Shown here: positions 6,546-7,346 of the stretch, one piece after another
How the letters are laid out: every line of letters begins with the position of its first letter
How positions within the stretch are numbered: the stretch's first letter is position 1
DNA from: a virus
DNA: 15,838 bases
Strand: one strand, 5' to 3'
Virus record (IMG/VR): IMGVR_UViG_3300010430_003968
The notes under the pieces: model-generated
What the model saw: the letters and a program-made list of their open reading frames with translations, nothing else
Databases searched by the model: none
What the model was told of the DNA's origin: nothing
Translations under genes and position numbers: made by a program

Positions 6546-7346
6546 ATGGGAAGGAATCCAGGACCACCTGATGATCCCAATGAAATGAAAGATGGTAGAT
6601 ATAATATCAATACCGGAGAATTTAGTGATATTTGGGATACCGATGAAGATACAGATAAAAGTAGAATCTGGGGAACCGACGAGTACTTCCGCAGAATAGA
6701 ACTTTCACGTGATGAGTGGGACACCGGATTAGAAGATTATCCCGGGATGACTCATAGAATAAAGCGTGAAACAGAAATAAGAAAAAATGCTGAAAGAATA
6801 AAAGAAGATGCAAGAAGAATATCAAACAATGCAAAAAGATTTTCAGATAGAATCAAAATTGATGCTGAGAAAATAAGAGCAGATGCAAGAGATGCCGCTC
6901 AAAGAGTAAGAAATAAAGTAGATCAAGAAAGTGCGGCGGCAAGGCTAGAGGCACAAAAAGAATTATTAAGGGATTATAATTTTACACCAACTCCAAGGAT
7001 AAAGAAAACAAAAAGGAGATTTAAATTGTCAAGCAAAAGTGGTGGTATAGGAATATTTGGTATTTTATTTTGGGGATTCCTTATGTTTAATATGTGCAGT
7101 GATGATGATTCTGATACCACAGCCAAGGTTGTGGATACAAGCACAGATACCAATTATACAGAACAGATAAAAGAATCTATTGATAAGTTAAAACCTGAAG
7201 CAGAAAAACTTATCAATCAGGCAAAGGATGAGTTAAAGAAAGTCACCTCTGAAAAGAAAGTGGCAAAAACAAAAACTGAAGGAAACACAAGTGATCCATA
7301 TAGTCAACCGGACGACAGATACGGAGGCACAGAAGACAAATGGTAA
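6546..7346 (+). CDS. Membrane-anchored repeat protein. It has an acidic N-terminus with three I/EW(D/G)T(D/G) motifs, then heptad repeats A-x-[RK]-[IFV]-x-x-D, a single TM helix (GGIGIFGILFWGFLMFNM) and a Lys/Thr-rich C-terminus.
   Basis: Good RBS (AAAGGA) upstream. The domain layout is read directly from the translation. Confidence 0.65.
   Translation: MGRNPGPPDDPNEMKDGRYNINTGEFSDIWDTDEDTDKSRIWGTDEYFRRIELSRDEWDTGLEDYPGMTHRIKRETEIRKNAERIKEDARRISNNAKRFSDRIKIDAEKIRADARDAAQRVRNKVDQESAAARLEAQKELLRDYNFTPTPRIKKTKRRFKLSSKSGGIGIFGILFWGFLMFNMCSDDDSDTTAKVVDTSTDTNYTEQIKESIDKLKPEAEKLINQAKDELKKVTSEKKVAKTKTEGNTSDPYSQPDDRYGGTEDKW
6786..6923 (+). repeat. Imperfect ~21-nt (heptad) tandem repeats inside ORF 6546-7346 encoding AERIKED/ARRISNN/AKRFSDR/.../AEKIRAD/.../AQRVRNK.
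   Basis: Periodic gc[at]-[ag]a[ag]-a[ag]a-[at]t units are visible in the DNA, and A-x-R-I-x-x-D recurs in the protein. Confidence 0.45.

Follow-up and report, generated by a model that had tools for sequence, protein, structure and literature searches.

A predicted inner-membrane protein of an uncultured T4-like phage shares a Trp-Asp-Thr motif with a nearby major vault protein homologue

Introduction

To our knowledge, the function of vault proteins is still unsettled, eukaryotes included. The docking module that has been characterised for them is a folded one, the MINT domain of PARP4, which wedges between two major vault protein (MVP) monomers (bioRxiv 10.64898/2026.05.01.722283), and the vaults of Dictyostelium contact membranes at the shoulder (PMC13100048). 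Phage homologues of MVP have been reported descriptively only, in two gut phages (bioRxiv 10.1101/2023.11.10.566534), and the bacterial homologues likewise (bioRxiv 10.1101/872010), with neighbouring genes or motifs treated in neither study. The present analysis concerns a gene encoded near an MVP-like gene, at positions 6546..7346 (+) of IMG/VR virus record IMGVR_UViG_3300010430_003968, a stretch of 15,838 nucleotides (nt) here called the window, which holds the replication/recombination block of an uncultured T4-like phage with 36% G+C. The product of this gene is predicted to be an inner-membrane protein, and its N-terminus bears three copies of a short Trp-Asp-Thr motif. Judged from the sequences compared, this is a genuine short linear motif with a putative binding partner, and the T4-like phage clade appears to put it, as one short peptide code, on an MVP homologue, a membrane anchor and two small acidic proteins. 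All homologues and loci discussed below come from partial metagenomic contigs.

Architecture of the protein

The gene and the parts of its product are as follows.

6546..7346 (+): the gene itself, an open reading frame (ORF) with an ATG start, encoding 266 amino acids (aa); 17 homologues and, in a deep search, 79 family matches
6534..6539 (+): Shine-Dalgarno-like AAAGGA, 6 nt ahead of the ATG, read off the sequence
6621..6644 (+): motif 1, FSDIWDTD, residues 26-33; F26, D28, W30 and T32 invariant in 18 sequences, identity 0.73
6660..6689 (+): motif 2, SRIWGTDEYF, residues 39-48; W42, G43, T44 and E46 invariant, identity 0.76
6708..6740 (+): motif 3, RDEWDTGLEDY, residues 55-65; D56, W58 and T60 invariant, identity 0.81
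6726..6971 (+): long basic amphipathic helix, residues 61-142, predicted local distance difference test (pLDDT) 74-90 in AlphaFold2 (AF2); presumably cytoplasmic
7002..7040 (+): basic juxtamembrane patch KKTKRRFKLSSKS, residues 153-165; K154, K156, R157, R158, K160, S162 and K164 invariant
7041..7097 (+): predicted transmembrane (TM) helix GGIGIFGILFWGFLMFNMC, residues 166-184, Gly-rich; AF2 helix 170-183
7098..7142 (+): acidic juxtamembrane segment, presumably periplasmic, with V195-x-D197-T198, in which V195, D197 and T198 are invariant
7155..7250 (+): predicted periplasmic helix, residues 204-235, a helix in AF2
7293..7343 (+): C-terminal end-peptide DPYSQPDDRYGGTEDKW-COOH, residues 250-266; Q254, D257, G260, D264, K265 and W266 near-invariant, identity 0.78

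A layout of short linear motifs, long helix and membrane anchor had been described in the original prediction, made from the sequence alone, and was read correctly, as the ORF, a Kyte-Doolittle (KD) scan and the AF2 model all show. The three Trp-acidic motifs are present as written, at W30 (SDIWDTDEDTD), W42 (SRIWGTDEYF) and W58 (RDEWDTGLEDY). One TM helix had been expected, and a single hydrophobic segment was detected at residues 166-184 (top KD window 1.69), flanked by the basic patch on its N-terminal side and by SDDDSD on its C-terminal side. The tail had been called Lys/Thr-rich, a description that proved too simple: the 82 residues after the TM helix are charged, carry a net charge of -6 and finish in a conserved DPYxQxDDRYGxxEDKW. 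Net charges of -11, +8 and +7 were obtained for the N-terminus, the helix and the basic patch. Because of this charge distribution and the positive-inside rule, the protein is predicted to be a bitopic inner-membrane protein whose first 165 residues lie on the cytoplasmic side and whose C-terminus is periplasmic. AF2, run with an alignment of 18 sequences, gave residues 1-60 a pLDDT below 53 and placed helices at residues 61-142, 170-183 and 204-235, which suggests that the approximately 65 acidic residues at the N-terminus are disordered.

The long helix contains a repeat at residues 82-127 (AERIKED/ARRISNN/AKRFSDR/IKID/AEKIRAD/ARDAAQR/VRNKVDQ), consisting of three heptads, a 4-residue stutter and three further heptads, with heptad-spaced A/I residues. 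In this region residue self-match is highest at period 7 (15, vs 3-12 for other periods), and the 21-nt periodicity of the DNA, also part of the original prediction, was recovered as an identity of 0.466 vs 0.366 +/- 0.032 in codon shuffles (p about 0.002). A tandem repeat at the DNA level was considered as its source and rejected; Tandem Repeats Finder detected none in the gene, and the heptad and 21-nt periodicity is therefore a protein-level signal. The hydrophobic residues recur most strongly with a period of 3.6-3.67, a period of 3.5 reaching significance too (p = 0.005), and in the homologues of the clade the periodicity lies at 3.55-3.75. With the peak at 3.6-3.67 instead of 3.5, the claimed coiled-coil heptads hold as a period of 7 in the residues, and a canonical coiled coil is plausible rather than proven. 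The region is best described as an amphipathic helix of basic character that contains heptad-type repeats with stutters, modelled by AF2 as one single helix, and its length varies among homologues (25% gaps, identity 0.46).

Conservation across the protein is uneven. There are 17 metagenomic homologues at 41-68% identity, plus one that is near-identical at 99%, and among the residues kept are F26, D28, W30, T32, W42, G43, T44, E46, D56, W58 and T60, so that each motif keeps its Trp, its Thr and its flanking acidic residues in all 18 sequences. Also kept are the KxKRRxKxSxK patch, V195-x-D197-T198 and the terminal DDRYGxxDDKW. Pairwise identity is 0.73-0.81 in the motifs, 0.80 in the basic patch, 0.78 in the tail, 0.46 in the helix and 0.31 in the linkers. 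Between lineages the protein is 41-56% identical and the products of neighbouring genes 62-96%. The motifs are thus short conserved islands inside a disordered, fast-drifting context, as expected of short linear motifs, and their conservation in homologues, which the original prediction had set as a test of itself, makes them the best-conserved part of the protein. Searches with the window, the protein and one distant member found no nucleotide or protein match among 50,697 cultured or deposited phage records.

The Trp-Asp-Thr motif and its carriers

In the proteome of the window, W[DG]T was counted seven times, vs 0.58 expected (0 of 2000 shuffles), and the carriers are only the 266-aa protein with its three copies, the MVP-like protein and an acidic ORF of 98 aa. 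A fourth carrier is encoded in related loci. Written as a consensus, the motif reads [DR]-[IVLE]-W-[DG]-[TS]-[G or acidic]. The other carriers and their motifs are listed here.

3770..6265 (+): MVP-like gene, 831 aa, a fellow motif carrier; Pfam MVP_shoulder at 6e-25, MVP in the PDB
5021-5044 (+): internal-loop motif RGWDTEE of the MVP-like protein, at W421; model pLDDT < 50
6224-6262 (+): C-tail motif EQEWDTYEDGRR of the MVP-like protein, at W823; model pLDDT < 50
15471..15767 (-): acid98, acidic protein of 98 aa with DDWGT, TWDTG and DIWNADEPW, from a motif scan; 13 homologues
L033 9527-9994 (+) and L034 5311-5775 (+): p155, an acidic helical protein of ~155 aa encoded just upstream of acid98, beyond the right end of the window

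The MVP-like protein is a full-length MVP homologue that aligns collinearly, over residues 476-767, with the rat and human proteins (E about 8e-9); it is about 53% identical to many bacterial copies and has more than 6800 homologues at E 1e-10 or better. Its model is confident at the shoulder and along a 125-residue helix, and of low confidence at both motif segments. An acidic-W-[DS]-T tail end occurs in only 6 of the 120 best homologues, all at >= 77% identity, and where the context is visible, these copies accompany the 266-aa protein. Homologues at 58-61% identity have an acidic W-[DNS]-T-E loop, and the bacterial-type proteins at 52-55% (Riflebacteria, Desulfobacterales, Microscillaceae and others) have neither tail motif nor loop. 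The acidic W-[DS]-T C-tail and the RGWD[TSE]E loop are clade-specific additions to the MVP-like protein.

In acid98, the stretch TWDTGxKPDxWNxDEPW is conserved by the 13 homologues. The C-terminus of p155 is the motif exactly (...ESKVWDTKE or ...DNVIWDSKE); this protein has Pfam matches below threshold only. Further observations concern acid98, which is very acidic. At its N-terminus MGLFGDIFDDDDFEI is conserved, its Cys cluster reads CDDDCDxxxDCGGC, and its C-terminal ...KKSFDVDDFFS bears a loose likeness to ...EEKASLDFLFG, the end by which T4 DNA polymerase binds the clamp. Its gene is the last of a convergent glycosyl-/methyltransferase operon, as seen in L033 and L034.

The motif also recurs in the wider family to which the membrane-spanning part of the 266-aa protein belongs. 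A protein is counted here as a long form if its TM helix starts after residue 40. Of 31 such proteins, 29 have one or more W[DGN][TS] upstream of that helix; the motif is missing from all 60 short forms. Outside the clade there are 14 long forms, with 22 instances between them, vs 0.93 expected and a maximum of 5 in 5000 shuffles; their extensions are otherwise unrelated to each other, and the long helix is missing from most of them. The Thr/Ser position is occupied by 62 T and 5 S in 67 instances. A variable copy number and recurrence beyond chance in unrelated contexts and proteins are further marks of a short linear motif. A literature probe for a Trp-acidic phage motif returned nothing relevant.

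Relation to the MVP-like gene

The 266-aa protein had been placed directly downstream of the MVP-like gene in the original prediction, a position that needs correcting, since a hairpin and a small ORF intervene; a prepilin-like ORF follows.

6275..6292 (+): hairpin, rich in G+C and with a T-run, immediately past the stop of the MVP-like gene; 7-bp stem with 6 G-C pairs
6314..6532 (+): accessory ORF of 72 aa between the MVP-like gene and the gene of the 266-aa protein; conserved in the window/L021 and L004 lineages only
7340..7525 (+): prepilin-like ORF of 61 aa; Pfam N_methyl at 2.8e-9

The hairpin position is kept in six lineages (the window, L001, L004, L009, L027 and L028) with differing stem sequences and a dG of -15 to -31 kcal/mol, and the hairpin separates the MVP-like gene from the unit of the 72-aa ORF and the 266-aa protein. 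Its candidate functions are those of a terminator, of an attenuator and of a stabiliser of the mRNA 3' end. A T-run follows it in only some of the lineage copies, and two contigs with an MVP-like gene (P0113, whose tail lacks the Trp) end about 70 nt past the stop, near the hairpin's usual place.

Both genes are present in the window/L021, L001, L004, L009 and L027, and in the distant L028, where the MVP-like protein is at 59% identity and the 189-aa protein next to it, with a single DWDYWSTFDEE motif, is recognised as belonging to the family (hmmsearch E = 3e-13). Co-occurrence is not obligate. In L002/L003, which have the backbone closest to the window (gp46 89-94%), the 266-aa protein stands at the locus without the MVP-like gene or the prepilin-like ORF, and its first 70 residues are almost unchanged. 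In L034/L035 the locus lacks all three genes, and the motifs are kept on acid98 and p155. Outside the clade, the MVP-like genes in phage contigs of 114-359 kb have no family neighbour, and the distant motif-bearing long forms adjoin RtcB and RNA-ligase genes, with no MVP-like gene within about 8 kb of these partial contigs. A folded MINT/INT domain was not detected in the 266-aa protein by Pfam, NCBIfam or PDB searches, and its N-terminal 60 residues are predicted to be disordered. Judging by these comparisons, the protein is probably not an obligate MVP partner. The presence of the motif on the MVP-like protein itself and on two other proteins makes the former a fellow carrier and not an obvious receptor.

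A wider family of small membrane proteins

A profile search of 1.84 billion representatives matched 79 proteins, mostly of 100-130 aa, and most of the matches cover profile positions 136-241 only, which correspond to the TM helix, the periplasmic part and the tail. Short forms follow the pattern MSKSSGGIGIGxIIFWG..DDDD..helix..end-peptide and make up 60 of the 93 family members, each consisting of the TM-plus-periplasmic module alone. SGGIGIGxIIFWG is the best-conserved stretch of the wider family, and a DDDD run follows the TM helix throughout. The 266-aa protein has the whole family core, namely the basic patch, a SGGIGIGxIIFW-type TM helix, the acidic run, a helix and the terminal DDxYGxx[ED]DK[WYF]. 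Pfam, PHROG, NCBIfam and PDB-sequence searches found no relative for it or for 33 diverse family members, the only matches being weak compositional ones in the helix, to Scy, FliH, apolipoprotein and designed helical bundles. The core of the protein would accordingly seem to define an undescribed phage family of small N-in/C-out membrane proteins, which is fairly widespread, sits inside replication modules and has interchangeable end-peptides. In uncultured phages that are seen in metagenomes only, its members are candidate agents of envelope takeover or of superinfection exclusion. The name 'gas vesicle protein', given to one member by JGI (P0017), was rejected as unsupported by Pfam.

The end-peptides of the 93 family proteins include ...DDxYGxxEDK[WYF] (53 proteins), ...GMKKL-like (27), ...RFKPI (3) and ...FKTIE (3). 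Each of these classes (seen among P0039-P0093) terminates in a hydrophobic or aromatic residue, which suggests that a free C-terminus is recognised by different envelope partners. For the strict tail signature, IMG/VR gave one match, metagenomes gave 10 and GTDB genomes gave 0, and the distant long forms P0030 and P0071 were not found in IMG/VR.

Tails of the DK[WY] type were also seen on other anchors. A prepilin-like protein of 82 aa (L030 1257-1505, (-)) ends in ...TDDPYGDTKDKY, the end-peptide of this family on a different anchor; the 123-kb contig that encodes it has an MVP-like gene as well. In another phage group, a 185-aa lipoprotein with lipobox LMGC (L031 2241-2798, (+)) is encoded directly upstream of an MVP-like gene, and its tail, ...YQEPDDKW, loosely recalls that of the family, whose hidden Markov model does not detect the protein. 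Taken together, these cases indicate that the tail behaves as a modular periplasmic C-terminal peptide. A further ORF of 114 aa (L022 131-475, (+)) joins a GroES-like N-terminus (...ASGIIIPDSAKEKP) to the periplasmic module only (KTAKVVDTSSDTNY...DDRYGGTEDKW), with no motifs, helix or TM segment, and is either a deletion/recombination remnant or an assembly chimera.

In a second phage group, of low G+C, the short forms are encoded at a constant position: a DnaB-like helicase gene comes first, then a UDG-like gene and then the family gene, with a polymerase-sized gene of ~890 aa no more than two genes away.

Genomic context

The genes of the window include a gp55-like sigma factor, gp47/SbcD-like, gp46/SbcC-like and UvsX/RecA-like genes, in the same order as in T4. 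The interval between gp47 and gp46 holds two small ORFs, a PhageMetallopep gene with an HExxH motif, a 55-aa ORF, an 81-aa ORF with two TM segments, a lipoprotein-like ORF, the MVP-like gene, the 72-aa ORF, the gene of the 266-aa protein and the 61-aa prepilin-like ORF. The start of the last of these overlaps the stop of the 266-aa protein by 7 nt, as it does in L001, L004 and L009, which suggests that the two are translationally coupled; the overlap is present in every lineage that has the prepilin-like ORF, and the ORF is missing from L002, L028 and L034. Its product (...KAFTLIEVMVVV...) has little beyond the N-terminal pilin helix and a conserved end, KKGTHQGVY.

The PhageMetallopep gene (PF18894; 2178-2633, (+)), with an HECRH motif, is found in every clade contig that covers the position. 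The 81-aa ORF (2800-3045, (+)) encodes two hydrophobic segments and a charged Pro/Lys/Glu tail, a holin-like shape; it is present in most clade lineages, was not detected in L001, and overlaps the start of the lipoprotein-like ORF (3042-3758, (+)), which encodes 238 aa with lipobox LTIAGC. The latter is accessory, being present in the window, L001, L009 and L028 and missing in L002 and L004. No T4-type late promoter (TATAAATA) was found in the window, and a scan of the window for sigma-70-like promoters did not rise above background; its best match, 11/12 at 2114-2142, lies just upstream of the PhageMetallopep gene.

Possible roles

The same disordered peptide is found on four unrelated proteins, two of which keep it where the MVP-like gene and the 266-aa protein are missing, and the simplest explanation is a single cytoplasmic reader. 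Such a reader, of host or phage origin, would bind all four motif carriers. The 266-aa protein, being trivalent and the only membrane-anchored carrier, would concentrate it at the inner membrane, and a multivalent reader would bring the other carriers along, assemblies of the MVP-like protein included. On the other side of the membrane, the periplasmic end-peptide, whose C-terminal residue is aromatic and free, would contact a partner in the envelope. A membrane tether of this kind, with the MVP-like protein as a fellow client of a shared motif reader, is put forward tentatively from the sequence comparisons, at somewhat under an even chance. The peptide of ~8 residues, together with a Trp-to-Ala control, would offer a handle for the partner and for the site of a vault-like assembly.

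Several points weigh against this proposal. The reader is hypothetical, its existence and the tethering role both being deduced. Alternatively, the motifs might serve for modification or cleavage, or might take on a fold when bound to the basic helix of the same protein. The low pLDDT may be caused in part by shallow alignments (18 and 60 sequences), and the proposed topology has the positive-inside rule as its sole basis. Within the clade, the MVP-like gene always occurs with the 266-aa protein (six lineages with both, 0 with the MVP-like gene by itself). The lineages that lack the MVP-like gene are close relatives, with 86-95% backbone identity, and retention of the motif in them could reflect recent loss; the contigs being partial, an MVP-like gene elsewhere in genomes of the L002/L003 type is also possible.

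The protein had been proposed to act as a docking or cargo-adaptor protein for the MVP-like protein. An adaptor role is still the most reasonable reading, but the comparative data do not support docking on the MVP-like protein. In this alternative, the Trp-acidic motifs would dock straight onto the MVP-like shell, the 266-aa protein would anchor or load a vault-like particle, and acid98 and p155 would be cargo. Such docking would account for family members that adjoin the MVP-like gene in six lineages, the distant L028 included, for the lack of any clade MVP-like gene without its companion, and for the addition of the motif to the MVP-like protein only in lineages that have the 266-aa protein; SPFH-type cages, moreover, are typically membrane-anchored, and Dictyostelium vaults touch membranes at the shoulder (PMC13100048). 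A motif on the MVP-like protein itself, however, fits a client better than a receptor. The motifs of the 266-aa protein are intact where the MVP-like gene is absent from the locus (L002/L003), acid98 and p155 still bear the motif in the lineages with neither gene at the locus (L034/L035), distant motif-bearing members have MVP-free neighbourhoods, and distant phage MVP-like genes have no family neighbour. With a conserved hairpin between the genes as well, direct docking appears unlikely. The analogy to eukaryotic vault cargo, which had been part of the same claim, is a loose one, the docking module known for vaults being a folded MINT domain and not a linear motif.

A second alternative is that of an early envelope effector, in which a component of the host envelope would be bound by the end-peptide together with the TM helix, for example in superinfection exclusion or in the takeover of an envelope machine, and the extension would only regulate or localise the protein. 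The predominance of the TM-plus-periplasmic module alone (60 of 93 members) speaks for it, as do a Gly-rich TM helix and an end-peptide that are conserved family-wide. The fixed place of the short forms in replication modules recalls that of T4 imm between genes 42 and 43, and the gene is fast-evolving and accessory, being absent in L034 and truncated in L022. Translational coupling to a prepilin-like ORF, and a window with no T4-type late promoter, would also suit such a role. Nevertheless, T4 Imm is not a homologue (hhalign probability 5.5%, over the TM segment only), the envelope target is hypothetical, and the same cytoplasmic motif on three soluble proteins is left unexplained. As a full account this is doubtful, but it is compatible with the tether model and does not exclude it. 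A separate reading, with a smaller chance still, would make the motif the address code of a phage-built, membrane-docked, vault-like compartment. In it, shells of the MVP-like protein, formed inside the infected bacterium, would be kept at the inner membrane by the trivalent anchor, the small acidic proteins would join or enter the shell by way of the shared motif, and the end-peptide and the coupled prepilin-like protein would connect the whole to an envelope machine.

It is quite improbable that the W-D-T sites are instead cleavage sites of the HExxH metallopeptidase, Thr/Ser modification sites, or a small fold that depends on oligomerisation or on the protein's own helix. The Thr/Ser position is strictly hydroxyl-bearing, every lineage of the clade has the PhageMetallopep gene as a core member of its cluster, and the charge of the N-terminus (-11) opposes the +15 of the helix plus basic patch, all of which would be expected under one or other of these variants. 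The distant long forms, however, have the motif with neither the helix nor a nearby metallopeptidase, and docking motifs typically vary, as these do, in copy number, spacing and context.

A lysis protein, i-spanin-like (a spanin-like protein having also been offered in the original prediction) or class III holin-like and paired with the upstream lipoprotein or two-TM protein, has very little to recommend it: a single-TM, N-in/C-out shape with a helical, charged periplasmic part would fit, and a lipoprotein-like ORF (3042-3758) and a small two-TM ORF (2800-3045) do lie in the same cluster, but the long helix is on the cytoplasmic side, the periplasmic part is short (about 80 residues), L002 and L004 have the 266-aa protein but no lipoprotein, no spanin, holin or endolysin match was obtained in PHROGs or Pfam among 33 family members, and the gene lies within an early replication/recombination module without late promoters.

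Comparison with known systems

With the vault partners, exemplified by the MINT domain of PARP4, the 266-aa protein shares its encoding near an MVP homologue and the possibility of attaching something to the shell. It differs from them in its disordered motifs of ~8 residues, which are also found on the MVP-like protein, in its predicted membrane anchor and in its occurrence without the MVP-like gene. The contact of vaults with membranes (PMC13100048) makes a membrane-tethered MVP-like assembly conceivable and is not evidence for one here.

The likeness to T4 Imm lies in a small inner-membrane protein that is accessory, fast-evolving and encoded inside a T4-type replication block. The two have no sequence relationship, and the 266-aa protein has a cytoplasmic extension of 165 residues. 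Homology to T4 Imm, gp46.1 and gp46.2 was considered and rejected, with hhalign probabilities of 5.5%, 0.2% and 0.05%.

Rz-type i-spanins are likewise N-in/C-out bitopic proteins with a charged helical periplasmic segment, but their TM helix is N-terminal and their coiled coil periplasmic, whereas the long helix of the 266-aa protein (61-142) precedes its TM helix (166-184). A search for an o-spanin partner found none: the downstream gene is prepilin-like, and no lipobox ORF adjoins family members elsewhere. There is no lysis cassette either. The 266-aa protein had 0 PHROG matches, none of the 33 family members matched a spanin or holin PHROG, and Pfam gave no such match.

With apolipoprotein and LEA-type helix repeats, the protein shares a basic amphipathic helix and a periodicity of 3.6-3.7. 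The matches, present in some family members, are weak, sub-threshold and compositional, and the helix is missing from distant long forms.

The logic of RseA-type regulators, in which a cytoplasmic binding element, one TM helix and a periplasmic element are combined, is shared by analogy only, with no homology. The recruitment of clients to a hub through short linear motifs, as with clamp-binding peptides, offers a further analogy, and one of principle only, in that a short motif is shared by several clients of one hub.

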